Source: a virus (taxonomy: Duplodnaviria; Caudoviricetes). Taken from it: a stretch of DNA of 64,000 nucleotides. This document shows, piece after piece, positions 32,851-56,187 of this stretch. Each line of letters opens with the position of its first letter. Position 1 is the first letter of the stretch. The stretch lies in the IMG/VR virus record IMGVR_UViG_3300011008_000016, positions 128,001 to 192,000 of that record. One strand, given 5' to 3'. The notes under the pieces are model-generated. The model was not told the DNA's origin. It searched no databases and saw only the letters and a program-made list of their open reading frames with translations. A program made the position numbers and the translations under genes.

Positions 32851-33336
32851 AAACTACATATACAAAAAAAGTAATCGGGGAGTCTTTATCACTCCACCGA
32901 TTACTCCGACGTGAACAGGAATACACGTCTTCCTTCTATGGCTTAATAACCATATGCACCCGGCATATAATTATATAGCATCACGTCGGGATTTCTTCTG
33001 ATACCAGTGTGTTGGGACTCAACAGTAGTAGTTGAGTTATAATGAGGTAACACATCTGGTAATGCTCTCGTGGCCCGTGTGATATACGGGTCGTAAGATT
33101 TCCCATACTGAATCACGTTTGCGATTTGATTCAGTATGGGAAATCTTTTGTCAAGCATATTCACAAATTCTTGCTGATTCTTAGTCATTATCTCAATCCT
33201 CCTTTCTAAATACTCGATATAGCTTCGCATCTCCTTTCTTCAGATTTATTCATTTATATACCTCCTTTCATATGTATTTTATCCACTATATCTAAGTATT
33301 TAATATATTTACAAAATCTCTGTGAACCGGATTTTT
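32851..33336 (-). repeat. early cassette copy A (promoter, triple-SD leader, hairpin peptide gene, terminator)
   Basis: 42-nt leader identical to 47171-47212; terminator identical to 46898-46931; 10-21-10 hairpin at 33101-33141. Confidence 0.85.
32943..33188 (-). CDS. small PIL-x7-QYG family protein, copy A (81 aa from the SD-led ATG)
   Basis: AAAGGAGG RBS; homologous to 46957-47226 and 55970-56137. Confidence 0.65.
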   Translation of the reverse strand: MTKNQQEFVNMLDKRFPILNQIANVIQYGKSYDPYITRATRALPDVLPHYNSTTTVESQHTGIRRNPDVMLYNYMPGAYGY

Positions 33337-33398
33337 AAATTTCTCTAAAATATGGGCCATTTCCACAAAAAAATAATAATTGAAGGAGGTGACATAAT

Positions 33399-34652
33399 AT
33401 GTCTATCACAATGTCAAACCCCTCTATTGTACATACATTTGGTAATGTCGCTTGCGTGGCTATAGAATATATGAAATCTTTCTTTGGGGATGATTACTTT
33501 ACGAAGATTCATGTTAGTACTAAAATGTCACATCGACAGTTAGATGTATTCCGTGCAAAAACGGGGTTTTGGAAGAATAAAAAACCAATGTTAGTTCTTA
33601 GACCAAGAATTGATTGGGACGGAACCAGTAACTGGTTTTATGGTTCCACAATGATGTCTCGGGTAACACATAGTAGATCTCCAATGGAATTTGCAGATTT
33701 AGTTCCATTAATTCGTGACCCAGAGCATATGTTAGAAGTGCAATTTCTATGGAATCGGTATAGAGTAGTATATGACGTTGTAATCATACTGGAAACTTAC
33801 AATCAACAGGTCAATATCATGAATGATTTAAGGAACCAGCTTGATATTGATTGTCCATATCCAATTCCTACGTACTTAGAAGCTTATATCCCGAAAAGTG
33901 TTGTTTATTCAGTTGCAGAATATTTAGGAATTGATAAAAATGATACACCTCGGATACTGGAGTATTGGAATACAATGTCCCCAGTACCGATTACTTATAA
34001 GCTTCACAAAGGCTCAGGAAATCATGAATTCTTTATGTTGTATCCGACCAAAGTTGAAGTTTTAAGTACAGATGTATCACCAGATGATGGAGAGACGAGG
34101 GGTCTCGTTAGTGATACATTTACTATAGGATTATCTTTATCATTAGAGTTTAATGCTGTAGGTGTATGGTATACATTCCTTAAAGATGATATTGATGAAT
34201 TCCGTAGGGCTCAAATAGACGAAAACTTGAGGTCTAATGGAAAAAATAAACAAGATCATATAATTCCTATATCATCTATTCCCCTTGGATATGATTTAGG
34301 ATTGGAAAAAGGATGGAAGATATTAGAATCTCCTATGTATTTTCCTACTCCTGATAAAACAGGTCTTGATGTTACAGATATCAGTTCCATTTTGGATATG
34401 ACATCAGTGAGGGGACTCATCAAACATCATCAAAAAATGAATATCCCTTTAGAGGAATTCATTAAGTTCAGAGTATTTTGCGGTACAAAAGAGTTACAAA
34501 GAGGAGTAAATGGGTTTGATATAGATTTGAATAATAAGTGCATCTATACTTATAACGCAGACTATACGCAATCCCATAGAATATTTGTAATCATCAATTC
34601 CATGGCAATTAACAATATGGCAACTGAAATTACAAATTTCGATAAAACTTAA
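33399..34652 (+). CDS. hypothetical protein, probable virion structural
   Basis: AAGGAGGTG RBS; late-type promoter 33364-33375. Confidence 0.8.
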   Translation: MSITMSNPSIVHTFGNVACVAIEYMKSFFGDDYFTKIHVSTKMSHRQLDVFRAKTGFWKNKKPMLVLRPRIDWDGTSNWFYGSTMMSRVTHSRSPMEFADLVPLIRDPEHMLEVQFLWNRYRVVYDVVIILETYNQQVNIMNDLRNQLDIDCPYPIPTYLEAYIPKSVVYSVAEYLGIDKNDTPRILEYWNTMSPVPITYKLHKGSGNHEFFMLYPTKVEVLSTDVSPDDGETRGLVSDTFTIGLSLSLEFNAVGVWYTFLKDDIDEFRRAQIDENLRSNGKNKQDHIIPISSIPLGYDLGLEKGWKILESPMYFPTPDKTGLDVTDISSILDMTSVRGLIKHHQKMNIPLEEFIKFRVFCGTKELQRGVNGFDIDLNNKCIYTYNADYTQSHRIFVIINSMAINNMATEITNFDKT

Positions 34653-34687
34653 TCAGAACACTATACTAAGCGTGTGAGGCGAACATT

Positions 34688-34921
34688 ATGGCATTATTAA
34701 ACGTAGAAGAAGCAACTAAAGACTTTGAAGAGAAGTTAGAAAGTGGTTTTTTCAAAAGCCGATATCCAGAACCTCAGGGTTATATTGATCCTGACAATGA
34801 ATATGACCCAGATGATATTGAGGGCGGATACTCTAAGTACAAAGCTCAACGGGACACGGATGCAGTTATTGCATTCGCGAAATCGGATGCGTTCAAGGAA
34901 TTATTGAACGCTATAACGTGA
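34688..34921 (+). CDS. small acidic hypothetical protein
   Basis: Late-type promoter 34657-34668; GAGG RBS. Confidence 0.65.
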   Translation: MALLNVEEATKDFEEKLESGFFKSRYPEPQGYIDPDNEYDPDDIEGGYSKYKAQRDTDAVIAFAKSDAFKELLNAIT

Positions 34922-35141
34922 CAATTCGTTGACGGTCATCAGAAAAAGAAACCAACCTCATCCGGAAAGAAGCCGGAACAATCAAATGGAAATTGTAAAG
35001 GTTGTGAAGACACGATTCCTTTGAGAACGTGATAAAAATAGGTATGTGGATACAAAAATGAATGACCGATAATCAACGGATTTGTAATATAAAGAGAGAC
35101 TGGTAGTAGGATTTCGATTCCTCTATCAGTCTCTCACCTCT

Positions 35142-36533
35142 TTAACAAATCTTCACACCGATAAGGGTATTTCCGTCCATGATATACTCAGATGGATTCC
35201 AATCACTCCTAAGCATCTGGTAATCATAAGTACAGGAGAATCGTTTCATTAATTCATCCTCATACTGGATATACCTATCTAACGAATGGCATTTATATGT
35301 AATGGTTGCAAGTTTATGCAACCTGTCAACCGTATCCATATCCATGGAGGTACCGGTGCTAACATTAACAGTTCTGCAAAGAGACACAAGTTCAGATGTT
35401 CTGCTATGATCTCTAAACCATTCTCTAAATTCCGAATTAGACCTATTTAATGAGTAACATAATTCCAGTAGTTCAGAATGTGACTGTTTCGCCAAAGCTC
35501 TAACAGTCAATATACCATGGTTCTTATACAATGATAAAATTGCACCATTTTTAAGAAGGTCATTCATCTTAATATTGCCATTATTGTCATTATATGGGCG
35601 TTTCGGTCGTTGTTTTAATTCTTTCTCTTTCTCTTTTTCTTCCTTCTTTTTTTCTTTTTCCACCTTTCGTGCTATTCTTTCTTCCCGTTTACGTTCACGG
35701 AGTTCTTCCAATTTCCTCTGCTCTTCTTTTTTACGTTCTCGTTCTTCCTTTCTCTCTCTTTCTTTTTCTATACACTCACGCTCGATTTTCTTTTTCCATA
35801 ACGTATTGGATAAGCTGTATAAATTATCCGTTAATATCTCTAATGTTATAGTAGATACTATATTTAATGCATCTATATTCTTGATAAAGATATCTTTTTG
35901 AGATATCACAGACTTATATGCCGTCCATATTACATTGAATATCGCTTCTAACCTAACTATATGATCACGGCGAATATCATATGCTTCATACGAATACCCT
36001 AAAATATAAGAGTATACAATGTATATACACTTCAAATACGTAATGCATATATTGCATTTGTTTAGTAGACGATTTATATAGCCTATCATATCCCTTGGAA
36101 CATTAACATCTTCATCGGTATTTCCGTCTAACCATGTAGGCGACGCGAACCACCCTCTAACAACATCTATCGGAAATTCAGAATCTTGATTGTAATAATC
36201 CATGTTACTAAAATCATCATCTAAGTCTTCAGATAATTGAAACAACATGAGTTCTACTATTCTATTTTCTTTCCAGTCGATTTTAGTTGGATTCATCCGA
36301 ATTATCGGATGATTTAATTTAATGATGTCATTCCTTTGCGTAATTAGACGAATAGAATCTAAAACCTCCTTAAAATTTACTTCATACAATTGACTTAAAT
36401 TTTCCAATGCAGCTAATCCCTTAACAACATTTAGTTTTGTCGCATTATCATAAACATAAGGCATTGACTTCCAAGAATATACCTTATATTCATACCCTAT
36501 TTTGCCAACCCCTATTTTATTACCCATCCCCAA
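35142..36533 (-). CDS. early hypothetical protein with E/R/K charged helix and possible alpha-CTD/HhH-like segment
   Basis: Boxed early promoter 36587-36621; KEREREKEERERKK-type run; HGILTVRALAKQSHSELL. Confidence 0.75.
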   Translation of the reverse strand: MGMGNKIGVGKIGYEYKVYSWKSMPYVYDNATKLNVVKGLAALENLSQLYEVNFKEVLDSIRLITQRNDIIKLNHPIIRMNPTKIDWKENRIVELMLFQLSEDLDDDFSNMDYYNQDSEFPIDVVRGWFASPTWLDGNTDEDVNVPRDMIGYINRLLNKCNICITYLKCIYIVYSYILGYSYEAYDIRRDHIVRLEAIFNVIWTAYKSVISQKDIFIKNIDALNIVSTITLEILTDNLYSLSNTLWKKKIERECIEKERERKEERERKKEEQRKLEELRERKREERIARKVEKEKKKEEKEKEKELKQRPKRPYNDNNGNIKMNDLLKNGAILSLYKNHGILTVRALAKQSHSELLELCYSLNRSNSEFREWFRDHSRTSELVSLCRTVNVSTGTSMDMDTVDRLHKLATITYKCHSLDRYIQYEDELMKRFSCTYDYQMLRSDWNPSEYIMDGNTLIGVKIC

Positions 36534-36680
36534 TCTCCTTTCTTTTTGGTAACTATTGGAATGATACTATTATTCATCTATTAATTTAATATAGTATTAA
36601 CTTATGCTTAGAATGGATTTTGCTTAAAAGCCCCTATAGACCACAATATCATAAATCTTATGTAAAGGAGGTTTACAGGT

Positions 36681-39600
36681 ATGGATATGACAGTAAAAAC
36701 CCCGAAAGAAGAATACATCGACACAATTGATGATTTAACGATACCGGAAGACGTTCTCTATACGAACAATACGTTTAATCTCAATGCACTCAACGAAACA
36801 CTTGAGCGTCTTTCTCTTATCAACTTCTGGAGTTTATACCAAACCCAAAAAGTCAGGCTCCATATGGAACGGTTTGATATTCCGTTTCGGGAGTTTAAAC
36901 CCACATATCGGTTACCCGGTGAACGGGGTAAAGATTACTTTCCAAAGCGTAATATCGCTTATATAGACTATCAGTTTATCCATGCAGAGCTTCGGAGAAA
37001 GTTCAGAAATTCAGAGTTCTTTAATAAAGCTCTAAATCAGGAAACGATTGCGGCGAATCCTGATTTGTTCCGTTGGAACCATCTTGTATTCATAGATGGA
37101 AATTACATCTCGACGACCGAAGTATATCCGATGGAAGCAAAAACTGGAATCATTATCGACGTTGAGAGTAATCATAATGAACACGGTCTTACTTATATAG
37201 ATTACAATAACTATACGGAACGTAATGCCACTGTGACAGTACTAATGGTACCATCTTTTAAATTTGCTATGGTAGATACGAACCAATATGTCATTGATAA
37301 TTACCATGGAAGAATTCCATTTAGTAAGATACCGGGTTCGGAAACTTTCACAGAAAATACATTATGCCTTCTGAATGCAGAAGAGTTGATATGTAGAAGA
37401 TTCTTTTCAGATAGAATCAAAGTTGATGTTGATAATCAGATTGTTCGGTTTATGGGCAATCTGGATGCGGGTGGAAACAAGTATCGACTTTGTTTCATCA
37501 CCTTTGATTTTCTTTTTGCAAAAAAGGAATTTACCAAAGAGAATCCATACATTCAGCTTAATGAAGCAAAGATGCCTTGTCCGAAAGAGCAAATTTTCTT
37601 CTTAACGAAAAAGGCTGGCGAAATCAGATACTTCTTTAACGCCAATATAAAAACGGAGATGTATTATCCAAACATCTATAAGTTCTCTGGATTGGAAGAT
37701 GATGAAACAGGCATTGCAATTATTCTTCAAGATGAGGATAGTGTATCCCGATCTGAAGAGTATATGAATGAGTTACAGAAGTACGAAGAATATATTGAAA
37801 TGCTTCCGAGATATCAGAATGATTCTATCCCGGAAATCTTAAAGACATACAGACCTTCCATGTTTACTTATTCTATTAAGGATTACGAAAGTTCTGTTTA
37901 TGTACCAGATACTATGAACTACAAAGTCCAGAAACTTCATAAAACCATCTATGAGAATCCTTGGGCTTTGGTGGTTTATTTGGATTTGCTTAATCTTCCC
38001 ATGGATAAATTCTATTTGGATATGGAAAAGATTGATTTATCTAACCGTATTCGTCTGGATTCATCCAGAGAAGAAGTTGATAGTGGTACAAAGTTGGTTA
38101 CATTTGATGAACCAAGGTATGTCTTTGCTATGAATCGGCATTTTGTCGATACAAGGAGTTACGGTTTTAGAATATTCATTGATGGATATTTCCAACTTGA
38201 TAATACTTATACGGTACTATCCGGTCCGAACTTCTATTTCATCTATATTCCGGTAAGTAAGATTACGGAAACTTCTATGATAGAGATTGAACGGTATAAG
38301 CTGTTTACTATCGAGAAACGTGGTGTTGTAGTAGACACATCAACTCCTGTTATTGAGATTGATTTCTCTCAAGACAGACATATGTTTGGTTATTCAAGAG
38401 AAATCTATGCTGTGGACATGGAGACAAGATTCTTCATTCCTAAGAAGTACTTAAAGATTGAAGTGCTTTATGGATTTACAGAACGGGCTCAGAAGTGGGT
38501 AACAATTCCTGAGCAAAGGAACATCCCTCTGGAAAATAAAGTTCGTGTGACAGTCCTCAATGAAGCATATGTCGGAAAGACTGTAAGAATTGGTATTCAG
38601 AGAAAACTTGCAATGTCCACAGGAGACGTATTCCATGAAGCAGATGCAAATAAGGCTTCACCATTCTGGTATGCTAAAGGGGAAATCACCAACTTTGGTG
38701 AATTTGATAGAGGTAATTATCGTATCTTTAACAAGGGTAGGATGTTACTTCCTATTCAGTATTATATCAATCTCTCTGAGAAGTATGGTGGAAAGGATTT
38801 CTTTAGAACCAGTTGTGAACTTCACGAAGGTGACCAATTTACCATTGACCATGTTCCTGCACAATTCCGTGTTGTATATTATCAATATGAAGTTGATTCC
38901 GTGAACAAGAAAGGTTACGTTGACCTTGATGGAAAGATTGCGTTACCTATTTCTTTGAAGTGGTATGATATCTATCTGAATGGACGCAAGCTCCATAAAA
39001 AGAATATCGAAATTATATCTCCTACTAAATTCTATATTGAAGGAGTAGAATCCAGAAAGCATCTTATTATAGTTGCTAAGAATAGGGATACTGAGATTTT
39101 CCATCTTCCTTATTATGAGGATAAGATGGATGAACCCGTTAAGATTGATTGGAATAATACTATCATAGATGATTTGATGAATGTCATTTATGATTTGAAA
39201 GAGACGATTGACAATACAAAACCAACAATCGAAAACGAGGAAGGAGAGATTGCCACGAATGTTGCTAAGAACATTGACGGATTAGTATTCTTCTTTGAAT
39301 ACATGATGTACACGTTCATTAACGCAAATAAGAGGCAAATCACACAAGAATTTAAGGAGCTATTCCCGTCTCTGCTTACAGAGAACGCGATTATGCCAAT
39401 CGACAGTAACGATGGTGCAATTAAGAATAACGAGATATCTGGTTACTTGATTAAAGCCATCGATTGTAATATACAGAAAGGAGAGGAAGACATGTTCACA
39501 GATCCTAACGTGAATTATGACGGTATAGGTGCGTTACAAGATCGTTTTGCTTTACGCCCTTTGAATACCGATAATTACGAGTATGGTTTACGTGAAGAGT

Positions 39601-40106
39601 TCATGACTGATCCAAATACAGCGGAACCTGCTCTTGTGAATGCAGATGGTACAGTAACTGCTATCAGTACAATGACACGTTTAAACCATCATATTGAAGA
39701 CTTCAGTAGTAAGATTACTACATACGGTATGGGTCGGGCTGATATTTATCAGATTACATTCGATAATGAGTATAAGACTGCTCTTTATACGGCAGGTGAA
39801 AATATGCTCACAGAAGAAATCGAAACACCTGAACCGGTGCTACGAGTTTGTCTTGGTCTCGATACGACATTCCTTGCTCAGTATGGAGATTGTAAGATGC
39901 TCAAAGTGGCAGACATTGATCCGATTGTTACAATCGGATATAAACTTGACGGAGAACCAAAGGAAATGTCCTGTAAGCTTACTCGCTTAAAGGATAATGC
40001 AATCGAAGCAGAAAACAAAGTGGTTACACTGGATAGCATCGTTATGACGGATATTCCGGATACAATAACGAAGATATTCATCCACTCAATTCTGTTAGCA
40101 TTCTGA
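36681..40106 (+). CDS. large virion structural protein (tail/baseplate-like)
   Basis: 1141 aa; repeated beta-rich (I/V)F(I)DG/YLNG units; late-type promoter 36642-36653; AAAGGAGGT RBS. Confidence 0.75.
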   Translation: MDMTVKTPKEEYIDTIDDLTIPEDVLYTNNTFNLNALNETLERLSLINFWSLYQTQKVRLHMERFDIPFREFKPTYRLPGERGKDYFPKRNIAYIDYQFIHAELRRKFRNSEFFNKALNQETIAANPDLFRWNHLVFIDGNYISTTEVYPMEAKTGIIIDVESNHNEHGLTYIDYNNYTERNATVTVLMVPSFKFAMVDTNQYVIDNYHGRIPFSKIPGSETFTENTLCLLNAEELICRRFFSDRIKVDVDNQIVRFMGNLDAGGNKYRLCFITFDFLFAKKEFTKENPYIQLNEAKMPCPKEQIFFLTKKAGEIRYFFNANIKTEMYYPNIYKFSGLEDDETGIAIILQDEDSVSRSEEYMNELQKYEEYIEMLPRYQNDSIPEILKTYRPSMFTYSIKDYESSVYVPDTMNYKVQKLHKTIYENPWALVVYLDLLNLPMDKFYLDMEKIDLSNRIRLDSSREEVDSGTKLVTFDEPRYVFAMNRHFVDTRSYGFRIFIDGYFQLDNTYTVLSGPNFYFIYIPVSKITETSMIEIERYKLFTIEKRGVVVDTSTPVIEIDFSQDRHMFGYSREIYAVDMETRFFIPKKYLKIEVLYGFTERAQKWVTIPEQRNIPLENKVRVTVLNEAYVGKTVRIGIQRKLAMSTGDVFHEADANKASPFWYAKGEITNFGEFDRGNYRIFNKGRMLLPIQYYINLSEKYGGKDFFRTSCELHEGDQFTIDHVPAQFRVVYYQYEVDSVNKKGYVDLDGKIALPISLKWYDIYLNGRKLHKKNIEIISPTKFYIEGVESRKHLIIVAKNRDTEIFHLPYYEDKMDEPVKIDWNNTIIDDLMNVIYDLKETIDNTKPTIENEEGEIATNVAKNIDGLVFFFEYMMYTFINANKRQITQEFKELFPSLLTENAIMPIDSNDGAIKNNEISGYLIKAIDCNIQKGEEDMFTDPNVNYDGIGALQDRFALRPLNTDNYEYGLREEFMTDPNTAEPALVNADGTVTAISTMTRLNHHIEDFSSKITTYGMGRADIYQITFDNEYKTALYTAGENMLTEEIETPEPVLRVCLGLDTTFLAQYGDCKMLKVADIDPIVTIGYKLDGEPKEMSCKLTRLKDNAIEAENKVVTLDSIVMTDIPDTITKIFIHSILLAF

Positions 40107-40125
40107 TGAAAGGTGGTGAAAGGCT

Positions 40126-42513
40126 ATGAAATTAGTTAAGGTACGCGATAACCGAAATCGCCCTATAAATAACCTTGATGTTATGGTCGGAGCCATCTTT
40201 GGTGATGAAGTTCCGAAGGAATTTATCGTTGACAAATACTATCATGCAGGCGAACGGGTTTATAGTTTTGATTCTAAAGGACATCTGAATGTCTGGATTT
40301 GTAACATCAGCGGTAAGTTTAAGGCTTGTAAAGAGCCGAACTTTTCTGAGTGGTCCATTAATTCGGTAATCAATGAAGCTCAGGATAAACTCAAAGGCTT
40401 AACTGTAGAGAGTAATGTTGATGCACTGATGTATATCAGCAATTCTGGTATTACTCCGAGGAATGACTATGCTGAGTATGATGGTCAGGCTCATTTCAAT
40501 GCATTTGTGAATGACTTTGATTTGAACAACTATAACGGCAGGGATGATATCGTGGATATCTATCTGCGTCGGGAACACTCTGACCATTATCTTAGGAAAG
40601 AAGATTATCAGTTCCATGGTGGAGAGATTAGTGTATCTCTTCCACTTGAGGATATGGTTGATGAAGTCAATATTGACACGAAGTTTCTTCCTGTTGGATA
40701 TATTATCAGTAATGAGCAGATGCAAACGAAGCCGTATTGGTATAGTGAAGACAGGACAGCTAAAACATATGACTATGGTGAAAACGGCATTCAGATAACA
40801 GATTATGATGTCGTTACAGAGATGGGTAAATCTATCGAGTTTGGTTATAAGGTAGCTGATTTCAAGATTACCAACGTACATACCGTCGTTGGTTCTCCGT
40901 TGAATGCTCAGTTAGCGAAACCCGTTTATCGTCTCGATGATTTTGAGATCGAATCCCATGACCCGATTGGAAACAATGTAAACGATGAAGAAAATCGGGT
41001 GATTACGTTCCGTGTAGATATTGAGCCGGACAGAGATATTTACGACATCATTCAGGTTGAATTCTCTAAGGCTACTCAATTAGTATCTATACATTCTCAA
41101 AACGGATATGTCCAGCAGGTAAAATGCAACGTAACAGTCCGCAAGGATAAACCGCTTAGTATCTTTATGATAGGGAGCAAGGCGAATAGTCCTCTGACAA
41201 GATTCATCAAAGTATTGGATGAATATGGAACTGTTGTAGAGCAGGATGGTGAACATTTGGTTCGCATTCCAAGGTTTGATTTACTTCGTTTCAATAGTTT
41301 TGAGTTTGAACTCTACGTTAATCGTATCTTCCGTAGCGATTACGAAGAAGTATTGGACGAAGAGACAGGGGAACTCTACATTCGGATGCTTGATGATACT
41401 GATATTGATTGGGACAAAGATACCTTCTTATTCCATATCTTCTATAGTATTACTCAGAGAGCAGCCATTATCAAAACGCATGACCAGCAGGAAGTAACTT
41501 CTGATAAAGAGGCGTTCCGGTTAATGCTTAGTGCATCTTATATCAATAAGTTCCAATGGATGAAAATGAGGGAAGATTCGAAATTAGTACCTCCTGAGTT
41601 CACGGTTGGTAGTAAGAATACAGCAAGTATTACAGACCCGGAACATTACTTACAAATTGGTCAAACACTAAAAGCCGATGTATTCACCATGGTATTTAGG
41701 GATGATATCTCTCGTAGGTCTGGAAGTATGACAGACCTTTGCAACTCGGAGTCTTATCCTATCATGAGTGATACAAAGGAACTTGTCGTTCCTTTCACAG
41801 ATTATGACCCGATTTATGATGATTTCATTATTTTCAAGTCGGGTGGTGTACTGGTAAGTGCATCCAAATGGTATCTGAATGGAGACCATGTGAACTTGTA
41901 TGTTCACGAGAACCCTCTGAAAGATGGAGATTATGTAGATTTCCGTCTGTTAGACAGAGATGATACAGTTAGGGTTGACAACTACTTCTTTAATGTAGAT
42001 GATACTGAACTTACTGTTGATACAGGTCTTGACCTGTCAAATACGGCGTTCTACATGTTGTTTACTATCAGCGGTGAGTACATTAGTCAATCTAAGTATA
42101 CAATTGAACATAGTGAATCTGGTGATATCATCCGATTTAAGGAAGAATCAGAGGACTGTGACCAGCCTTATCTCCCGGACTTCGGGTCAAGAGTAGAATT
42201 GGTCGTAGGAGTGTATAAGCAGTCTTATAGTAGAACGCTTTACAAAATGATTCAAATTGTGGCAACGGATGAGGGACAGAGAGAATTTTATCTGGATGAG
42301 TCGGTAGAATACAATCCGTCATCAGACAACTTGTTAATCTTCAGGAAGGATGGGTTGTATATTGGCGAGCGGTTCTACCATACAGACCAAGAAACCGGAA
42401 AGATAGTTATTGATAAAGGTTCTGGAGTTCCCCTCGGTAGTTACATTGACATCTTACTGATACGGAATATGTCCGTAAAGGTAGTGCCTGGAACGGAAGA
42501 GGAAGGAGAGTAA
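40126..42513 (+). CDS. virion structural protein (tail/baseplate-like)
   Basis: 795 aa; repeated LYVN/IFK.GG/FRKDG beta units; same operon. Confidence 0.7.
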   Translation: MKLVKVRDNRNRPINNLDVMVGAIFGDEVPKEFIVDKYYHAGERVYSFDSKGHLNVWICNISGKFKACKEPNFSEWSINSVINEAQDKLKGLTVESNVDALMYISNSGITPRNDYAEYDGQAHFNAFVNDFDLNNYNGRDDIVDIYLRREHSDHYLRKEDYQFHGGEISVSLPLEDMVDEVNIDTKFLPVGYIISNEQMQTKPYWYSEDRTAKTYDYGENGIQITDYDVVTEMGKSIEFGYKVADFKITNVHTVVGSPLNAQLAKPVYRLDDFEIESHDPIGNNVNDEENRVITFRVDIEPDRDIYDIIQVEFSKATQLVSIHSQNGYVQQVKCNVTVRKDKPLSIFMIGSKANSPLTRFIKVLDEYGTVVEQDGEHLVRIPRFDLLRFNSFEFELYVNRIFRSDYEEVLDEETGELYIRMLDDTDIDWDKDTFLFHIFYSITQRAAIIKTHDQQEVTSDKEAFRLMLSASYINKFQWMKMREDSKLVPPEFTVGSKNTASITDPEHYLQIGQTLKADVFTMVFRDDISRRSGSMTDLCNSESYPIMSDTKELVVPFTDYDPIYDDFIIFKSGGVLVSASKWYLNGDHVNLYVHENPLKDGDYVDFRLLDRDDTVRVDNYFFNVDDTELTVDTGLDLSNTAFYMLFTISGEYISQSKYTIEHSESGDIIRFKEESEDCDQPYLPDFGSRVELVVGVYKQSYSRTLYKMIQIVATDEGQREFYLDESVEYNPSSDNLLIFRKDGLYIGERFYHTDQETGKIVIDKGSGVPLGSYIDILLIRNMSVKVVPGTEEEGE

Positions 42514-42518
42514 ATGAA

Positions 42519-43166: not shown

Positions 43167-43193
43167 AGTAGTAAGAAAGGGGGATAAACTATC

Positions 43194-43775: not shown

Positions 43776-43859
43776 AGTAAGAAACCAAAATAAGCAGGTT
43801 GGGAATATGTTACATCCCAGCCTGCTTACGTTTCGTCAATAGATCCTTAATAGTACACT

Positions 43860-46434: not shown

Positions 46435-46627
46435 AATGATTTCCCTCCTTTAACTTTCATGTAACATAATGCATATGTTATTCTTTTGTCCTCCTTTCCT
46501 TGGTTTTTAATATATAAATAATATTTTATCAAGTCTATTACATATTTTTAGAGGGAAATTAATCCCTTTATATCGTAATTCTTGTTTTAAAATTACACTT
46601 GTATATAAAAGTTGGAGGTTAAAAAAG

Positions 46628-46879
46628 ATGTCTAATGGAGCAATGCTCGAAAGGGCAAGAAAACTTGTGTTTGATTGGTACCGTGAAAGAGGAAACAACG
46701 ATTTATCATTTGACAATGTTTACGTTGTCTGGTTCTGCAAAACACTTCAGAATTGGAAGGCTCTGGTATCAACGGATGAACCGGACCACCGGTACTTTGA
46801 GATTACTCATAACGGCGTGGCAAATGAGACCTACCTCGATTCCTATATAAAAGAGGAGAATCGGGTATTTAAAGTTTGA
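46628..46879 (+). CDS. DUF6275-family protein
   Basis: VYVVWFCKTLQNWKALVST...YFEIT.NG...E.YLD.Y. Confidence 0.85.
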   Translation: MSNGAMLERARKLVFDWYRERGNNDLSFDNVYVVWFCKTLQNWKALVSTDEPDHRYFEITHNGVANETYLDSYIKEENRVFKV

Positions 46880-47310
46880 AACTACATATACAAAAAAGTA
46901 ATCGGGGAGTCTTTATCACTCCACCGATTACTTCCCGAACTATATTATGTTATCGTTCAGCGATACGTCGGATGGAAATGATAGTCCATCGACGAATCAT
47001 TCTGAAAAGGCACATAATATGTTGGAGGTAACGCCCGATTAACCCTGGTGGTAGCAGGGTTAATGGAAGTCCCATACTGGAGGCGATTGATTACGCTCTT
47101 CAGTATGGGATTTTTCGTTCCCATAAAGCATTTAATGTCATTATAATCCTTAGCAGTCATAGTTCCGGTTCTCCTTTCTAAATACTCGATATAGCTTCGC
47201 ATCTCCTTTCTTTTGAATTTATTCATTTATAATACCTCCTCTCAAATTACTTTATCCGCTATATCTAAGTATTTAATATAATTACGAAATCTTTATGAAC
47301 CGGATTTTTT
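46879..47310 (-). repeat. early cassette copy B
   Basis: Terminator 46898-46931, hairpin 47070-47110, leader 47171-47212, promoter 47274-47310. Confidence 0.85.
46957..47226 (-). CDS. small PIL-x7-QYG family protein, copy B (alternative start 47160)
   Basis: NPILKSVINRLQYGTSINPATTRVNRALP; three SD motifs in the leader. Confidence 0.65.
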   Translation of the reverse strand: MNKFKRKEMRSYIEYLERRTGTMTAKDYNDIKCFMGTKNPILKSVINRLQYGTSINPATTRVNRALPPTYYVPFQNDSSMDYHFHPTYR

Positions 47311-47340
47311 TATCTTTTTATTAAACTACAACAAAATATT

Positions 47341-47535
47341 AATCTTGAGGGTTGCTACTCAAGATCCACGAGAAAGGAGGCGTGGTCAAACCTTTTTGTT
47401 TATTTCTACAGAGATTTATTTATCCCTTGAACCCCGTGTATAAATATTTGTAGATTTGGGCATCTTGTTGTTTTGACCATGTGTGGGAAAAGACAGAGAG
47501 TGAGGAATCGTGTCCCTTCACTCTCTGTCTCTTTT
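47341..47535 (+). ncRNA. candidate structured small RNA with AAAGGAGG in a hairpin loop
   Basis: AACA-N6-TA at 47330-47341; hairpins 47342-47365 and 47366-47385; long stem 47382-47390/47472-47480; terminator 47491-47530. Confidence 0.55.
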
Positions 47536-47536
47536 G

Positions 47537-48796: not shown

Positions 48797-48833
48797 AAAA
48801 CCACCACCTTTCTTTGGTTGGCTTCACAACCCA

Positions 48834-49712
48834 TTACGCACTGTACCAACGATAAACAATACTCATATCCTTTTCCATGTGAAGAGGGTCGTTGGTGAAA
48901 TGGCAACAAGAAACCTGGTGTACCTGCTTATAATCAGGTCTACCATCTTCCGTATTGCTCAAGATACCAGAGCAAAGTCCAACCTCATTGAAACGAATTT
49001 CGTCAATGTTATCATAGAGATCAAACCACTCCCTGAAATCATCTTTCTCAATCGTGCAAACACACTCTGCGAAGCACTCGATAGGTGTATCCCGTTCGGA
49101 AGCATAATCTTCCTCAGTAACCGGACTACCATCAACATCCTTAGCAGCATCCTTCCAGAGAGGACGAATGACTGGAGTTCTGGTATATGTTTTCCCGTAG
49201 TATTCATACATACCATTGTTTTCCTTCATCAAGAAGTACTTATCATACTCTTCCATTCCCTCTACGAACGGTTCCTTTACTACTCGGAAAGGAATGATTT
49301 CATTGAGTGTCCTCTGTTGCTGGTATACAGGCTTGATATCCTTACGGGAATCACCACAACCACCAATACCCACAGTCCAAAGGCATATTCCATTTTCCCT
49401 TGGATACTTCTCAGTAATCGTCGGACCATCTGTAGCAATGCTCATAATACTGTTCAAATATTCAACATTTACTTCGCAGTTGACATTGAACATCTTCTCC
49501 AGAGCATAAATGGAACCGGCAAGAAGAATTTCATTATGGCGACGCCTTACAACATTCTCGCCAAGAATACTAAGTCCGGTCATCGGATCAACCGAAGGGA
49601 TGCCTCTTGTAACAATGGCTTCACCACGGAGCATTCCGCCGAACTCATCATACTGATTTCCAAAATCTTTAAGAATCCGAGTGGATTCGTCTACCCTTAA
49701 TAATTTAGGCAT
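48834..49712 (-). CDS. hypothetical protein, probable virion (start corrected from 49745)
   Basis: AAGGAGG RBS before ATG 49712; late-type promoter 49753-49764. Confidence 0.75.
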   Translation of the reverse strand: MPKLLRVDESTRILKDFGNQYDEFGGMLRGEAIVTRGIPSVDPMTGLSILGENVVRRRHNEILLAGSIYALEKMFNVNCEVNVEYLNSIMSIATDGPTITEKYPRENGICLWTVGIGGCGDSRKDIKPVYQQQRTLNEIIPFRVVKEPFVEGMEEYDKYFLMKENNGMYEYYGKTYTRTPVIRPLWKDAAKDVDGSPVTEEDYASERDTPIECFAECVCTIEKDDFREWFDLYDNIDEIRFNEVGLCSGILSNTEDGRPDYKQVHQVSCCHFTNDPLHMEKDMSIVYRWYSA

Positions 49713-49766
49713 TTTATTTTTCCTCCTTACGGTTTTATTTGTCAAAGTAACTTATTTATTTGTGCC

Positions 49767-52700
49767 TTACTCATCGTGTACTATGAATTGGAGAGGTCTC
49801 CTTGTGTCCGTCATAGCCATTTTTTCTTTAATGGTCATATCACAATGCGAAAGTAACGCATCAACATACCATTCTATAGCAGAACGCCTATCTACAATGG
49901 TACCGTCACCCAATATAATACATTTATCTTTCATGATATGACTATTGTCTTTTATAACCATATCACCATGAGCAGATTCTATTGACGATAAGAATGAACG
50001 GTTACCAGTAAGACTTTCCGTATCTGCTCTAAACATAATAACGTCAGAGTAATTACTAAATATTGTCTCTCTAATAACCCCTTTAGTATCCAAAAATCTT
50101 ACACGATTCTTATCGTCCAATTTATTATTTGTCTCTTGTATATGCGTAGTAGCTGATGTTGAATTGATTACTTCTTTAAGCGGTTTATTTTCAACAAACT
50201 TCGCATGTTTTGTTCCCACAGACATTGTGTCTGCATAATACGGAGACATAGTGTCATAAATTTTAGCACTGGCATCCATATTGTTAATACCTTCGTGCAT
50301 AACCAGATTTCCGTCTTTATCAAGATTGTCTCGTATAATTCCATTCCCTTCCATATCTACGGTCTCTATAAAGGAGCCATCTTCATCCAAACCCATAAAA
50401 CCAGTACCTTCCAGATATACGATTGTATCACCATAGGCACCAATCATCAAATCTCGTAATGTAAGTTTTCCGATGAGTTTAAATGCATCTTTGAATCGGT
50501 TATTGAGTTCGCTCATAGACATATGACCAGACATCCGAAGGATTTCGAATAATTTATTTCTGGTCTCCTTTACTTTCATAGCCGCAGACATAGCCTGAAT
50601 CCATTCATGATATCCTATATCCAGTTCTCTCACACAAAGAACAGCATGGAGCCAAATTCTGGACATCATTTTCATCAAGTTATAATACTTGCTATCAAAG
50701 AGATATACAACCTCCATCTCCTTAATTTCAATAGTATATGATTTGAACCATCTGAGAATCCTTATAATACCGTTAATAACCGTTGTATCAATCGGATTCA
50801 AATACTGTAGATATTCTGTATCCGCAAATAATGTAGACATCTTTGTTGCAATGTAATTGATTTTATCTACACAAGAATCTCTATCAAGAGCATCAATATA
50901 CTCATAGATCGGATAATCATAAGCTTTCAACCAATCCATATAGGTATCTGGTGTAGAACCATCTGGTAAATTAAAAACTTCATTATGAACATCCGTTATG
51001 AGCAATGTATTATAGAGTTTCTTATTTGCATGATATACTCTTTCATCTTGAGTAAGTTGCATCACTTCAATCAATAGTCTGGATAATTCCTTGACATTTC
51101 GATACATCTCATTTACATTCGATGCTGTCCTGAAGTAGATGTTATCAATGTATTTGAGAAGTTTTGGAGAATATAAGTCAGGATTGTTTCGAATCTCATC
51201 TTTAATTGCTTCCAAATCTTCATCAAAGTTAAAACCAAGAACCGCTAAAGTTTTTGATGGAGAAGTCAGTAAATCAGGTTCCATATTGTAGTATCTACAG
51301 AGAATACAGATAAGCATAATTTCAAGCTCAAACAAAGATACTTTGGAGTTGTTAATGAGTGAGAGATCGACCATAATGTTCGATGTCTCATTCGCCTTGT
51401 CACAAAGCATCTTTTGTAAGTAAACATGCTCAAACATCATTTCTTGCATACGAATAGTAATTGCAACATTCGTATACTTTGTTTCTGTATAGTTAATCTC
51501 TGCGTCCTGAAGTCTTTCAACGAGTTCCCTATCCTCTATCCAAAGAGAATCTGGAACCGTAACTGATTCATATGAATGAGCATTGGCATCGGTCTGTTCA
51601 ACCAAATTGATATCAGTCTCATTCATTGGAACCCCAACGAAATAATATTCATACGACTTGGTTTTGTCCAACTCGTATGTTGCATTTCCATCTTCATCCA
51701 GAACCGTCCGATATATAAAAATTGGAACGGGTTCAGACTCAGCGTTCATCTGTACAGTTTTATGCTGTTTTACCAGCAGATATTTTGTAAGGTCATAATC
51801 ATCATACTCTAATAACCCCAATATGTCATACATAACTTGAGATGTACATTTATTCATAATGAGTATATTAAGATTTTTGACCAGTGTCTTCTGTTGTCTG
51901 AATGTGAACATATCAACGAACGGAACACCATACGCTTCCAAAAACATTCGACAAGTTTCAAGGTCATAGAAATCTCTATCAACCATAACCTCAAACATAG
52001 AGTCTACCATTCTTTGAATAGCCATTACAAGGATAAAAAATCCAATGTAACTTTCATAGTATGGAAAAGATGCACTATAATGGAAGTTATACACTTGTCC
52101 AAGCATATAATGTCTTGCTTCCTCATAGTACATAACGAAGTCTCTATTAAATCGATTTGCGTTGTCCGGTCTTGGTACGTAAAGTAATTCAAAATGATCA
52201 GCCATACGAGCTTGTTCAATAGGAATTCTTCTACGTCCAAGATACTTTACGTATTCCGCATTGTATCCCGTATCGTTTATATAGTTATCATATATCTCTT
52301 TTAGATAACCACTATCATCCATTGCATTAAGAATGGTTTGCGGTAACCTATGAAGAGGTGTCATATTCTCAAGATTATCACTTTCATAATCTTCAACTGA
52401 GTTTCCTGTAAAACCAAATGCTATAAGTTCGTTCGGGTCTGGATAAATAAATTCCGCATCCACATCCGGTAAACCTGCAAGCATACGGTAATAATTATTT
52501 TTTTCCTCGTAGGAATCAATAATTGCTTTCCTACGAAGTTCCAAAACTTTAGTACGCTTTTCAAGTGGAACAAGATATGTATTTGTCCAAATTTGATCAA
52601 TCAAATCTTTATCGTAAATTCCAGCCGCATTTAATATCTCGACGGTTAGAGTTTCTGGTCGAACAACCAACCAATCGTCAGTTTTCAATACCGCACCTAT

Positions 52701-52832
52701 GTATTCATCTCCTGAAAATCTTGACTCAGGAGTTTCATACTTCTCTGCGTCTCTTACTGATTTATATACAATATGCGGAACGATTGCTTTAAGATATCTC
52801 TTAAAGCTATTCACCATTTCCATATGAATCAT
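49767..52832 (-). CDS. large probable virion/baseplate protein
   Basis: 1021 aa; Y.E.NNYYRML.G.P motif; late-type promoter 52853-52864. Confidence 0.7.
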   Translation of the reverse strand: MIHMEMVNSFKRYLKAIVPHIVYKSVRDAEKYETPESRFSGDEYIGAVLKTDDWLVVRPETLTVEILNAAGIYDKDLIDQIWTNTYLVPLEKRTKVLELRRKAIIDSYEEKNNYYRMLAGLPDVDAEFIYPDPNELIAFGFTGNSVEDYESDNLENMTPLHRLPQTILNAMDDSGYLKEIYDNYINDTGYNAEYVKYLGRRRIPIEQARMADHFELLYVPRPDNANRFNRDFVMYYEEARHYMLGQVYNFHYSASFPYYESYIGFFILVMAIQRMVDSMFEVMVDRDFYDLETCRMFLEAYGVPFVDMFTFRQQKTLVKNLNILIMNKCTSQVMYDILGLLEYDDYDLTKYLLVKQHKTVQMNAESEPVPIFIYRTVLDEDGNATYELDKTKSYEYYFVGVPMNETDINLVEQTDANAHSYESVTVPDSLWIEDRELVERLQDAEINYTETKYTNVAITIRMQEMMFEHVYLQKMLCDKANETSNIMVDLSLINNSKVSLFELEIMLICILCRYYNMEPDLLTSPSKTLAVLGFNFDEDLEAIKDEIRNNPDLYSPKLLKYIDNIYFRTASNVNEMYRNVKELSRLLIEVMQLTQDERVYHANKKLYNTLLITDVHNEVFNLPDGSTPDTYMDWLKAYDYPIYEYIDALDRDSCVDKINYIATKMSTLFADTEYLQYLNPIDTTVINGIIRILRWFKSYTIEIKEMEVVYLFDSKYYNLMKMMSRIWLHAVLCVRELDIGYHEWIQAMSAAMKVKETRNKLFEILRMSGHMSMSELNNRFKDAFKLIGKLTLRDLMIGAYGDTIVYLEGTGFMGLDEDGSFIETVDMEGNGIIRDNLDKDGNLVMHEGINNMDASAKIYDTMSPYYADTMSVGTKHAKFVENKPLKEVINSTSATTHIQETNNKLDDKNRVRFLDTKGVIRETIFSNYSDVIMFRADTESLTGNRSFLSSIESAHGDMVIKDNSHIMKDKCIILGDGTIVDRRSAIEWYVDALLSHCDMTIKEKMAMTDTRRPLQFIVHDE

Positions 52833-52929
52833 CTCCTTTCCGCGTACATACTTAAATGTATGTTAAAAATCCTTATTTTTAAGCATCTATTAACAGGAGA
52901 CTAATTTGCATATAGATAGGAGGAAGATT

Positions 52930-54096
52930 ATGACAATCAGAAATAGTGAAAATGGAAAAGAACCATTACTACTCAGTATACTGAAAGGGATTGCTATTAA
53001 TTCAGGTGTAGGGCTGTTATCAACAGCGGCTCATGTAGTTGTATCAATGACAACTTCATTGATTATAGTTGGTGAATGGGATGAAAGTTTCAATAAAATT
53101 AACAAGATGGTTCATGACTTAAACCCAACACAGTATTCCAGATACAGATTACCAACTCCCAATAAAAACCATTATGAGTTAGTTGCTAATATCTCATATG
53201 TAGTTAATCTTGGACATAGTAACTGGGTTAAAATAAGCTCAGAACTTAACGAAGAAAAGACTGTGTATCGAGAGAAAAAGTTGAAGATATGGTTTTATGG
53301 GAAGAATAAATACAAGATAAGGGAAGAGTTTGTCCGTAAATCATTACAATATAATGATGGTAAGCATATTAGAGTTCGTCACATGAATGATACAGGGATG
53401 AGCCATGATATTTTACCTCATTCATTTGAAAATATTGTAATGGATAAAACGGTTAAGAATCATATTCAGTTAGGGCTTAAAAATTGGTATGATAGTAAAG
53501 ATTGGTATACAAAGCATCAATTAGTACATAAGATTGGTATATTGTTATATGGTGAACCGGGTACTGGTAAATCTACAATAGCAAGAGCTGTCAGTACAAT
53601 GTTTGGTTGTGCTCCAATCATGACATTAGACCAGCAAGACATTATGAGTTCTATATCGAGAATTATTCAAGTGAGAAAACGATACGATGGTTTAATCATT
53701 GTATTAATTGAAGATTTTGATATGTTCTTTACAACGAGAGAAGAAAACAGTCAAACTACTGATAACGATGAAGACCAGAAGAGAGATATCAATCAAAATA
53801 CAGTATTTCAATTATTAGACGGTATCTACTCGACTGACAACACAATATACATAGCAACTACTAATTATATAGATAGACTCGATGAAGCTATGATAAGATA
53901 CGGACGGTTTGACATACAAGAGGAACTCAAGTTTTTCACAAAAGAGCAAGCATTAGAATGTGTTAAAATGTTTGATTATGATGAAAATGTCTTGGATTCA
54001 TTCAATTTGTCATATCCGGTTCAACCATCTTATTTACAAGGAAAGCTTATGGAATATCGAGCGAAAAATTGTTATAAAGGAGATGATATGGAATGA
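52930..54096 (+). CDS. AAA+ ATPase (BCS1-like) with N-terminal hydrophobic segment
   Basis: GILLYGEPGTGKS, IEDFD, LLDG, ATTN..RLD.A..R.GRFD; AGGAGG RBS. Confidence 0.88.
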   Translation: MTIRNSENGKEPLLLSILKGIAINSGVGLLSTAAHVVVSMTTSLIIVGEWDESFNKINKMVHDLNPTQYSRYRLPTPNKNHYELVANISYVVNLGHSNWVKISSELNEEKTVYREKKLKIWFYGKNKYKIREEFVRKSLQYNDGKHIRVRHMNDTGMSHDILPHSFENIVMDKTVKNHIQLGLKNWYDSKDWYTKHQLVHKIGILLYGEPGTGKSTIARAVSTMFGCAPIMTLDQQDIMSSISRIIQVRKRYDGLIIVLIEDFDMFFTTREENSQTTDNDEDQKRDINQNTVFQLLDGIYSTDNTIYIATTNYIDRLDEAMIRYGRFDIQEELKFFTKEQALECVKMFDYDENVLDSFNLSYPVQPSYLQGKLMEYRAKNCYKGDDME

Positions 54097-54665
54097 TTAT
54101 ATTATATGGATCAACTGGTTCAGGAAAAACGACTACAGCTATAGAGTTGGAACGACTTGGTATGCGGGTCGTTCCAACTTATACAACTCGTCCACCAAGA
54201 GAAGATGATTTTGGAACCATATGTACTACTGAAGAAGAATTTGAAAAAGCTTTAATTAATAACAAAATCTTTACTCATACATCTTATAACGCCACATTTG
54301 GAAAATGCCGATATTGGCTAATGAAATCTGAATTCTCTGGCTATACAACTAATTCAGTATTGGTTGGAAATTATGAATTCTCGAATTCAATTAATGAATG
54401 GGCTGAAATAGCTTTCCGATGTAGTGTATTCAACGTATTCATTAAAGTAGATTATAATATTATCGTTGAACGAGATAATGCTAAATCTAAACGGATTGAA
54501 AGAATGGATAGGTTAAAACGAGATGATTATAAGATGAAGGAGTTAGAAGCAAGCGCTGATTTAATAATTAATAATCAATCCTTACAATTAAGTAAGAACG
54601 TAGTAGCTGACCTTATTATGGAAAGCTATGATATATTTTTAAAGGAAAGAGGTGTTTTTAAATGA
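54093..54665 (+). CDS. gmk: guanylate kinase-like nucleotide kinase
   Basis: GSTGSGKTT, TYTTRPPRE.D. Confidence 0.75.
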   Translation: MIILYGSTGSGKTTTAIELERLGMRVVPTYTTRPPREDDFGTICTTEEEFEKALINNKIFTHTSYNATFGKCRYWLMKSEFSGYTTNSVLVGNYEFSNSINEWAEIAFRCSVFNVFIKVDYNIIVERDNAKSKRIERMDRLKRDDYKMKELEASADLIINNQSLQLSKNVVADLIMESYDIFLKERGVFK

Positions 54666-55351
54666 AGCAAATGCCAGGTATTATTTTCGATAAGGCAGAA
54701 GCTCCTCATCCAAGGATTGATTCAGATAATGCTTCTTATTACTTGGATTACGATAAGACCGAAGAATACTTCGACTTCTTTGATAATGAAATTGCATTTA
54801 TCAAAGGGGTTGAAAAACTTGTTCGGAAACATCGTTTCATACGGATTACTTATCCTAAATATCTCAAAGAAGTTGTTGGACTGCGGGAGTGTCAAGTATT
54901 TCCAAACATCAAAGATGACGGAAATACAAAGGTAAAACTTGAAATGCATCATGGACCAATTCTTACATTATTTGATACATGTGAGATTGTAACAAATGCA
55001 TTTCGAGCCAGAGGTGTTGAGAATATCAATACACCTTCTGTTGCAAATGAGGTCGTAGAACAACATCGACTCAACAATGTACGAGTCATGTTTCTGTGCA
55101 AATCTGCTCATCAAAAAGTTCATGATGAAGGAATCTATATCAACTATAGACAAGGATTCGGAGATACTCTAAAATTTTTACAACTATTCGGTGATGGAGT
55201 CAGCAAGAATATGAAGATGAAGATAAATGAGTATCTTGCTTGGAGTTTGGAGCATGATTCTACAGACAATAACATTCTTCAAATTGCAGATACCATGAGA
55301 GAATGGGGTAACAATGACTTTGATGAATTTGAATCTATTCATTTAGAATAA
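54662..55351 (+). CDS. HNH-like His-rich protein, paralog of 62954-63664
   Basis: EMHHGPILTLFD...H..N.V...L..SAHQ.VH. Confidence 0.6.
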   Translation: MKQMPGIIFDKAEAPHPRIDSDNASYYLDYDKTEEYFDFFDNEIAFIKGVEKLVRKHRFIRITYPKYLKEVVGLRECQVFPNIKDDGNTKVKLEMHHGPILTLFDTCEIVTNAFRARGVENINTPSVANEVVEQHRLNNVRVMFLCKSAHQKVHDEGIYINYRQGFGDTLKFLQLFGDGVSKNMKMKINEYLAWSLEHDSTDNNILQIADTMREWGNNDFDEFESIHLE

Positions 55352-55358
55352 GGAGTTA

Positions 55359-55862
55359 ATGCTTATGGAAAATACGATTTTGATAGCCATTTTAATAGGA
55401 GTTGTGCTTTATCAAATCTATACTGACTTGTATAACCGGAGAAAGATGTTCGAAATCCAGATTGAAATGGCTAAAGCTCAACAAGCAATGACCAAAGAAC
55501 TTACTTGGAAAGAGATTAAAGAAATCATCAATGATATCATATCGTTCAATGTAAGTACATATATTCTTCACAATGGTCTTATGAAGATGAACAATGAGAA
55601 ATTGTCAGTCATGTGGACAATGATTATTGGTGAGTTATGTACAAAGGTGGATACTGCTATATCACCTGAAATAAAGAGACAGGCTTTCAAATCTATATCA
55701 GAAATGTATTTTAGTCGTTTCATAAAGAACTCTGTAGAGATAACAGTAGTTTATCAGTTGGAAAATAATCGGGATAATAATGTGAATAGACGACTGGATA
55801 TGATACAGAGAAATCAGAATACAGTTAATATCCCAGAACCTGAAAAGAATACAAAAAAATAA
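55359..55862 (+). CDS. single-TM hypothetical protein
   Basis: ILIAILIGVVLY TM; AAGGAG RBS. Confidence 0.7.
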   Translation: MLMENTILIAILIGVVLYQIYTDLYNRRKMFEIQIEMAKAQQAMTKELTWKEIKEIINDIISFNVSTYILHNGLMKMNNEKLSVMWTMIIGELCTKVDTAISPEIKRQAFKSISEMYFSRFIKNSVEITVVYQLENNRDNNVNRRLDMIQRNQNTVNIPEPEKNTKK

Positions 55863-55888
55863 CATCTTAATTTGCATTTCACAAAAAT

Positions 55889-56187
55889 GTAATCTTGGGA
55901 GTCTTTATCACTCCCAAGATTACTAAAACCGTGACAGAACGCGGTTTCTTTATTCAATTATATTACAGTTTAACCATAACTCGGTCTATAACTGTAATGT
56001 TCTACTCTCGGATTGGTCTCACCCAAATAGTCGTGAAAACTAAATGGTACAGGACCAATCACACGGGTATCACCCGGAGCATATGGAGTCCCATACTGAA
56101 TACGGTTGGCGAAACTTCTCAGTATGGGATTATCCATAATATCTAAGGATTTAATATATAAACAAAAAGTCTATGAACCGGATTTTT
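55889..56187 (-). repeat. early cassette copy C (no multi-SD leader)
   Basis: Covarying terminator 55889-55923, hairpin 56089-56129, promoter 56152-56187. Confidence 0.8.
55970..56137 (-). CDS. small PIL-x7-QYG family protein, copy C (55 aa, near-leaderless; not in ORF track)
   Basis: MDNPILRSFANRIQYGTPYAPGDTRVIGPVP...YSYRPSYG, translated manually. Confidence 0.5.
   Translation of the reverse strand: MDNPILRSFANRIQYGTPYAPGDTRVIGPVPFSFHDYLGETNPRVEHYSYRPSYG

Follow-up and report, generated by a model that had tools for sequence, protein, structure and literature searches.

The 64,000-nucleotide stretch of DNA analyzed here (the window) covers bases 128001-192000 of the IMG/VR virus record IMGVR_UViG_3300011008_000016 (244,309 bp, 37% G+C) and carries three dispersed copies (A, B, and C) of a small cassette consisting of an early promoter, a short open reading frame (ORF), and a terminator, with genes, promoters, and terminators all on the minus strand. 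The genome encodes split RNA-polymerase beta-like subunits of the phiKZ/AR9 jumbo-phage kind and, judged from its sequence, belongs to a phiKZ/AR9-type jumbo phage of a little-known lineage. Within each ORF lie two 10-nt arms separated by exactly 21 nt (TCCCATACTG-N21-CAGTATGGGA), which pair in what we call hairpin 1 and are found without a mismatch at window positions 33101-33141 (A), 47070-47110 (B), and 56089-56129 (C), i.e., three matches in the window versus none in 100 shuffles. An earlier note on this DNA had described both the fixed 10-21-10 hairpin and a conserved peptide pattern in the same frame, and both descriptions are correct; the three copies that it counted are those of the window, whereas the whole genome holds four, plus three more units with a boxed promoter.

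The fourth copy of the motif (D) is located at genome 195783-195823, 3.8 kb past the end of the window, in a cassette that spans genome 195563-196040 (locus L012; equivalent to window 67563-68040 and thus outside the window). A fifth (E), in which the motif is kept exactly, corresponds to protein P0003 encoded on two short ENA metagenome contigs (L005 and L006) of a related phage. The boxed promoter of A-D is also present at three other genome sites (17262, 52486, and 72424), which belong to units F (genome 17230-17640, L009), G (52453-52876, L010), and H (72391-73150, L011). Units F and G contain ORFs of 62-63 aa (MPLTGN...) and the same terminator stem as A-C, lack the 10-nt arms, and show different long stems where hairpin 1 would be. 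Unit H consists of hairpins strung together over ~700 nt, its ORFs are all doubtful, and it is preceded by a promoter and leader as in the family, including the common leader element ATATCGAGT.T.TAGAAAGGAG. Overall, 7-8 boxed promoters are present in the genome, and in each case a small ORF and a terminator come next; at least seven autonomous early transcription units form one family in this phage. Protein comparisons lend only weak support to a homology of F/G and H with A-E (NRL..G...P..T..V.RA, hhalign P 0.014, for F/G; hhalign P 0.04 for H), and the case for it is made mainly by the cassette architecture and by the C-terminus of copy D in an alternative frame, which resembles that of G.

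Alignment of the three units of the window reveals a promoter block of ~65 nt conserved across A, B, and C (AAAAATCCGGTTCA, a spacer, and TATATTAAATACTTAGATAT), which bears out the boxed early promoter proposed earlier, with the correction that its strand is the minus strand. It occupies positions 33288-33336 in copy A (upstream box AATCCGGTTCA and TATATTAAATACTTAGATAT), 47261-47306 in copy B, and 56139-56184 in copy C, where the ATG of the ORF (56135-56137) follows directly 3' with no leader in between; copy C is thus without leader or ribosome-binding site (RBS), a correction to the earlier description. The early promoter consensus of phage AR9 is AAATATATATTAT-N6-G (Lavysh et al. 2017, PMC5312081), and by analogy we infer that transcription of copy A would start near the G at 33292. 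Similar to the early promoters of AR9 and phiKZ-like phages (PMC5312081; 201phi2-1, PMC11512511), those of the present phage (TATATTAAA-N6-G) are extended, conserved, AT-rich, and located upstream of hypothetical small genes, and the late motif AACA/TACA-N6-TA is shared too; they differ in an extra conserved upstream box (AAAATCCGGTTCA) and in the AAAATCCG box, which lies outside the published AR9 consensus. By the same analogy, the boxed promoter is presumably read by the virion RNA polymerase. A general early motif, AAAATCCG-N~22-TATATTAA, is present at many intergenic sites, and a looser form of it, AAAATCCG-N~22-CTATATTAA, recurs at genome 215457, 196565, 156932, and 164584 (minus) and at 20838 and 8231 (plus); the latter is probably the general early promoter of the phage.

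The leader of copy A (33189-33287, minus strand) has the motif AGGAG three times and includes an upstream ORF of 15 codons, and over its length of ~100 nt is identical to that of copy B (47161-47260), the three motifs included. Two AGGAG motifs that are additional to, and upstream of, the ORF's own are found in the leaders of A, B, D, and E. The first leader ATG opens a 15-codon upstream ORF in A and D, gives an in-frame fusion in B, and falls in another frame in E, and hence the leader is conserved as nucleotides and not as a reading frame. Polypurine tracts resembling Shine-Dalgarno (SD) sequences act as 5' stabilizers of mRNA in Bacillus, e.g., those of the STAB-SD type and the early-RNA stabilizer of phage SP82. 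The extra AGGAG motifs in leaders A, B, D, and E are reminiscent of these, and the leader may be an SD-like 5' stabilizer; the first AGGAG motif has an ATG at proper spacing and may simply drive the small upstream ORF. At the other end of the cassette, strong intrinsic terminators on the minus strand lie at 32858-32904 in copy A (GTAATCGG..CCGATTAC stem, T run, and GTATAT tail), 46886-46931 in copy B, and 55880-55923 in copy C. As claimed before and as seen in the unit alignment, the terminator loop is the same in all three, and the stem of copy C carries two compensatory double changes (CGG..CCG to CTT..AAG).

The ORFs, all on the minus strand, comprise 81 aa in copy A (32943-33188), 67 aa in copy B (46957-47160; 89 aa if read from an in-frame upstream ATG at 47226), and 55 aa in copy C (55970-56137). 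Six pairwise comparisons of family ORFs gave dN/dS values of 0.08-0.21 (0.15 for C versus E) at a dS of 0.7-1.6, and the differences pile up at third codon positions (6/5/16 over the three positions for B versus D, and 8/4/21 for F versus G), a bias that extends to the N-terminal segment outside the conserved stems. A strong SD sequence is placed at proper spacing before the ATG in A, B, D, E, F, and G. The dN/dS values, the third-position bias, and the SD sites together indicate that the ORFs evolved as coding sequence, and the selection on the peptide that had been proposed thus holds. The products are small hydrophilic orphan proteins: neither Pfam nor PHROGs provided a profile match for A, B, or C, a search of JGI metagenome contigs with the peptide pattern recovered no family member, and a look-alike search of the Atlas with the protein model gave no usable match. 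Three long proteins retrieved at E 1e-5 to 1e-3 were rejected as low-complexity noise, and the contigs of ERZ3810914 were discarded as an independent relative, being 100% identical to the present genome. Among the cultured phages searched there was no similar DNA or protein, and IMG/VR contigs contained no close relative of the phage and neither the motif nor the family. The search for the motif suggested by the earlier note yielded copy D in the genome, and protein searches retrieved P0003 (copy E) and otherwise just the copies themselves; a scan of metagenomes for the motif gave two matches, both of them an unrelated terminator hairpin of a high-GC bacterium, which was dismissed as a chance match.

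Coding is one of two constraints on these sequences, the other being base pairing. Hairpin 1 (33095-33147 in A, 47070-47110 in B, and 56089-56129 in C, minus strand) folds in five out of five copies, with energies of -16.6 to -29.9 kcal/mol and z-scores of -4.2 to -10 relative to dinucleotide shuffles. In copy A, where it encodes RFPILNQIANVIQYGKS, the 10-nt arms are extended to a perfect stem of 20 bp in a 51-nt fold (-29.9 kcal/mol, z -10), and the adjoining A and T bring it to the 21 bp noted before. Hairpin 2 lies at 33072-33092 in A, over the P-x2-T-R codons (CCCGT/ACGGG), at 47039-47063 in B (TTAACCCTG/CAGGGTTAA, 9 bp), and at 56060-56080 in C (CGGGT/ACCCG), again on the minus strand. 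In this hairpin the third base of the Pro codon pairs with the first base of the Arg codon, either as G:C (CCG/CGG; A, C, and E) or as U:A (CCT/AGG; B and D), and the next pair inward is U:A, G:C, or A:U. Considering both helices, 93% of cells are paired, versus 26-49% when the partners are slid, and four pairs show double changes; covariation from five sequences is suggestive, not proof.

The excess of structure is not confined to these two hairpins. When codons were permuted or redrawn from genome usage, the coding sequences (CDSs) of the family folded 3.9-6.7 standard deviations better than such synonymous shuffles (z -5.0 for A, -5.4 for B, and -3.9 for C), and not one of 300 shuffles was as stable. 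As a control, 24 random in-frame segments of long ORFs had a mean z of -1.4 and a minimum of -3.4. That mean by itself suggests that mRNAs of the phage tend to be structured throughout the genome. When 34 small ORFs of the genome with an SD sequence in front were ranked by folding, the top five places went to the five family members (-4.4 to -8.0; the next is at -2.8). Units F and G, which share 79% amino acid identity, have kept the overall stability and not the local fold. The structure is thus selected, as several independent lines of evidence agree, and the earlier suggestion of selection on pairing is supported by the z-scores of -3.9 to -6.7, the compensatory changes, and the rare codons kept in the arms.

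The invariance of the arms follows from these two constraints. The codons for PIL and QYG, CCC-ATA-CTG and CAG-TAT-GGG, are in-frame reverse complements 30 nt apart, and therefore every synonymous site pairs with a site that is fixed by the amino acid of its partner. Only 2 of the 1152 synonymous codon sets for PIL/QYG keep all nine Watson-Crick pairs (six if G-U is allowed); the TTG/CAA set retains both peptide and stem, and other synonymous sets break the stem alone. The arm codons are rare in the phage (CCC 7.5%, CTG 11%, GGG 11%, and ATA 21%; joint probability 8e-5 per gene), and all six are used in every copy. Within the 32-codon core, the columns with an invariant residue show synonymous variation in none of the six that belong to the arms and in all five of the others (N, P, T, R, and P), in line with the claim that synonymous changes occur outside the arms only. 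Selection on the peptide together with selection on pairing consequently freezes the arm sequence, and a sequence-specific reader is unnecessary; recognition of the arms as sequence is not supported. The reverse is possible as well, i.e., the residues may be conserved because the stem is, and the data fit either direction. The idea that the 21-nt inserts are complementary to phage sequence was abandoned, as no such site exists in the phage genome, and single arms have no exact match elsewhere in it.

The relatives provide a glimpse of how the cassettes are distributed. Contigs L005 and L006 share a 422-nt stretch of 100% identity that runs from the leader to TTTTTTGTAT, after which they diverge, the downstream flank of L005 being like the D site and that of L006 like the A site of the present genome. 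In the present phage, the ORFs at the A and D sites have only about one third of their residues in common. The two contigs derive from different samples and come either from two genomes or from a single one that has the cassette in duplicate. P0003 itself resembles B and D in its N-terminal part, C in the middle, and A in its C-terminal part. At the borders of the cassettes, TTTTTTGTATAT marks the end and the junction TTTTTTGTATAT-TTCCAAAAATCCGGTTCA recurs, and the arrangement of terminator T run, GTATAT, TTCCAAAAATCCGGTTCA, and promoter is found again upstream of C, D, and H. The presence of the identical 422-nt cassette in two flank contexts is in keeping with the earlier note's idea of a self-contained unit that may move or be exchanged. 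Retro-mobility was considered and rejected because the duplicated stretch includes the promoter upstream of the inferred start, as was the involvement of a diversity-generating retroelement, since the loop differences between B and D are ordinary synonymous changes and not adenine-specific. The gene directly downstream of cassette A (32029-32769, minus strand) encodes a protein of the PD-(D/E)XK nuclease superfamily (Pfam PF12705, E 6e-5), and the same neighbor is also present 3' of the cassette in contig L006. On the scale of the genome, a ~40-nt context (GTCGTCACAGGTGTATCCAATACTGCATC...) is seen at both ends of the record (genome 49-58 and 244284-244293), which means that the record ends overlap, through either a terminal repeat or circular permutation.

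Promoter-early stem-loop (PeSL) elements of T4-type phages are repeats that combine a terminator stem-loop and an early promoter beside ORFan genes (Arbiol et al. 2010, PMC2839356), and they mediate the modular shuffling of such genes (PMC2839356; Comeau et al. 2014, PMC4122927). The cassettes described here also repeat an early promoter and a terminator stem-loop around small ORFans, and with an identical cassette in two flank contexts they are suggestive of repeats used as exchange points, resembling the PeSL-type shuffling of T4. Yet, the promoter is of the AT-rich AR9 early type and not sigma70-like, the phage is phiKZ/AR9-like and not T4-like, and the PeSL papers describe neither hyper-structured coding regions nor an in-ORF palindrome. 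Another likeness is to phage morons, autonomous promoter-gene-terminator units that are inserted between phage genes, classically in temperate phages, and are expressed from the prophage. The present units are similar in that a lone small gene with its own promoter and terminator sits between unrelated genes, on either strand, and differ in that they exist as several paralogous copies under an early promoter of the lytic type. Finally, small RNAs with a dual function (SR1/SR1P, RNAIII/hld, and SgrS/SgrT, for example) code for a small peptide as well, and have in common with the cassettes a short, highly structured transcript with its own promoter and terminator; here, no trans target is found in the phage genome, and most of the transcript is taken up by an ORF that is clearly subject to purifying selection. 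From the earlier proposal of a dual-function RNA/micro-protein family we therefore retain the selection on both levels and not a function of the RNA on its own, given that the whole window yielded no match to Rfam 15 at the gathering threshold and that the loops have no target in the phage genome. The designation as an undescribed system was overstated, as the architecture resembles the PeSL and moron promoter-terminator cassettes of other phages: PeSL- or moron-like cassettes and structured coding RNAs are already known, and what is seen here is their occurrence in a little-known jumbo-phage lineage.

Based on the above, we consider it reasonably, if by no means overwhelmingly, probable that the units give rise to stable early mRNAs for host-takeover or anti-defense proteins, selected on protein and pairing together. 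The near-perfect AT-rich early promoter would be transcribed by the virion polymerase immediately after infection, and a leader with multiple SD motifs, internal stems, and a 3' hairpin would make for a long-lived message and a burst of expression. The internal stems could hide single-stranded RNase sites and so hinder single-strand-specific RNases or RNA-guided defenses, while small host-takeover or anti-defense proteins would be delivered straight after infection. The conserved terminator-tail/promoter junctions, for their part, might allow the exchange of cassettes between sites by homologous recombination, in a PeSL-like manner. Several observations weigh against this explanation. The sense and antisense z-scores are alike in A-E, and the sense strand is not singled out by them; the covariation comes from five sequences that make up about three independent lineages. 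Copy C is missing ~130 nt, has neither leader nor RBS, begins with an ATG inside the promoter box, and has lost ~15 N-terminal residues, with hairpin 1 beginning 8 nt after the start. Copy D suffers from a frame break, and its annotated frame of 71 aa loses the family C-terminus, which can be read in another frame (NKMVYQYRSIR-stop), where the changes relative to the C-terminus of G are almost all at third positions. The break must lie near the GTTCCCCTTTGGGAAC hairpin and could be a true frame break, an assembly error, or recoding. With compromised ORFs and intact RNA features, C and D fit an RNA-level role at least as well. The proteins have no confident fold either (AF2 pLDDT 52 for two short helices and a disordered tail; Atlas model pLDDT 0.40), and when 1.84 billion representatives were searched exhaustively with a profile, the matches were the family copies and P0003 alone, none of them beyond this phage lineage.

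The state of C and D leads directly to the main rival proposal, namely that the structured RNA is the effector (a decoy or sponge for a host RNase or an RNA-sensing defense, a riboregulator, or a dual-function RNA) and the ORF is secondary or decaying. Both copies keep promoter, hairpins, and terminator despite their damaged coding capacity, unit H amounts to a run of hairpins behind the same promoter and leader with doubtful ORFs, the extreme structure is specific to the family, the majority of the invariant core residues (PIL, QYG, P, T, and R) sit in stems, and the protein models are of low confidence. We nevertheless regard it as rather unlikely, because dN/dS is 0.1-0.2 with a clear third-position bias also outside the stems, a strong SD and ATG precede the ORF in six units (A, B, D, E, F, and G), no Rfam family is matched, the 21-nt loops and single arms lack a complementary site elsewhere in the phage, and F and G maintain the overall stability and not the same local fold. 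In a wider version of it, which we think quite unlikely, the units would be abundant early structured RNAs whose fold acts, e.g., as decoys for host ribonucleases or for RNA-guided or RNA-sensing defenses in the first minutes after infection, with the ORF as a second function or a ribosome-loading device, and would form a class of coding-plus-structural RNAs kept diverse by cassette exchange. That the arms are invariant whereas hairpin 2 and the terminator covary, and that both strands fold equally well once composition is controlled, might also be expected if the palindrome acted in DNA, be it as a two-half-site operator (centers 31 bp apart, ~three helical turns) through which a phage regulator blocks the early units or as a cruciform or single-stranded DNA hairpin for recombination. 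This is improbable: coding and pairing fully explain the invariance, the pairing runs past the arms with differing sequences that a protein half-site does not need (20-21 bp in A, and pair 15:31 is U-A in A and G-C in B, D, and E), the excess structure spans the whole transcribed CDS and not one site, and F and G are without arms and have other stems at the same place.

The question of which strand folds has its own alternative, in which the selected pairing is that of a late antisense RNA, initiated at a TACA-N6-TAA motif over the terminator tail, that silences the early units once infection is advanced. Genes of the phage have an AR9-like late motif ([AT]ACA-N6-TA) within the preceding 120 nt three times as often as expected (40 occurrences versus an expected 13); read on the opposite strand, the terminator tails of B, D, E, and G spell TACA-AAAAAG-TAA; G-U pairs render hairpin 1 of B and C more stable on the plus strand; and late antisense promoters exist in AR9 (PMC5312081). 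Sites of this late type are seen on the plus strand over the terminator tails, e.g., at about window 32860-32875 and 46888-46902, where an antisense late start is possible. We rate this alternative as very improbable, since A and F have spacers of N7 and N7-8, respectively, and C has CACA as the motif, and since the TTTTTTGTATAT tail is also found after unrelated terminators without a TA at the right distance, i.e., the match may be a by-product. Moreover, although the raw stability of antisense folds matches or exceeds that of sense folds, shuffling indicates that composition is the cause, and unit G, alone in this respect, clearly favors the sense strand. G-U-only and A-C-only cells balance in the conserved helices. 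The minus-strand mRNA is the parsimonious carrier of the fold, as promoter, SD, ORF, and terminator all point there. Scarcely credible, in the end, is an ordinary recent paralog family in which the identical stretches are leftovers of duplication or gene conversion and no structure is selected. The promoter, leader, and terminator blocks are indeed near-identical and clearly homogenized, but the synonymous sites flanking the arms are near saturation (dS 0.7-1.6), and it is implausible that every lineage would have undergone conversion over 10-nt tracts at just the two pairing arms; the rarity of the arm codons, the compensatory changes in hairpin 2 and the terminator, and the folding z-scores of -4 to -7 also speak against it.

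The cassettes are of interest in several respects. In statistical terms, the family is a clean and compact example of constraints that overlap in a DNA phage, with an in-frame palindrome specifying a predicted protein helix, and the TTG/CAA codon set, set against the stem-breaking synonymous sets, offers a ready experimental handle on the overlap of coding and pairing. Extreme mRNA structure sets a single early gene family apart, and phiKZ/AR9-type jumbo phages may shuffle small early genes by means of PeSL-like cassettes. The proteins of the cassettes are unexplored candidates for host-takeover or anti-defense functions, and if early messages are shielded by their structure against RNA-targeting immunity or the RNases of the host, this would bear on the survival of jumbo phages in the earliest and least protected phase of infection.

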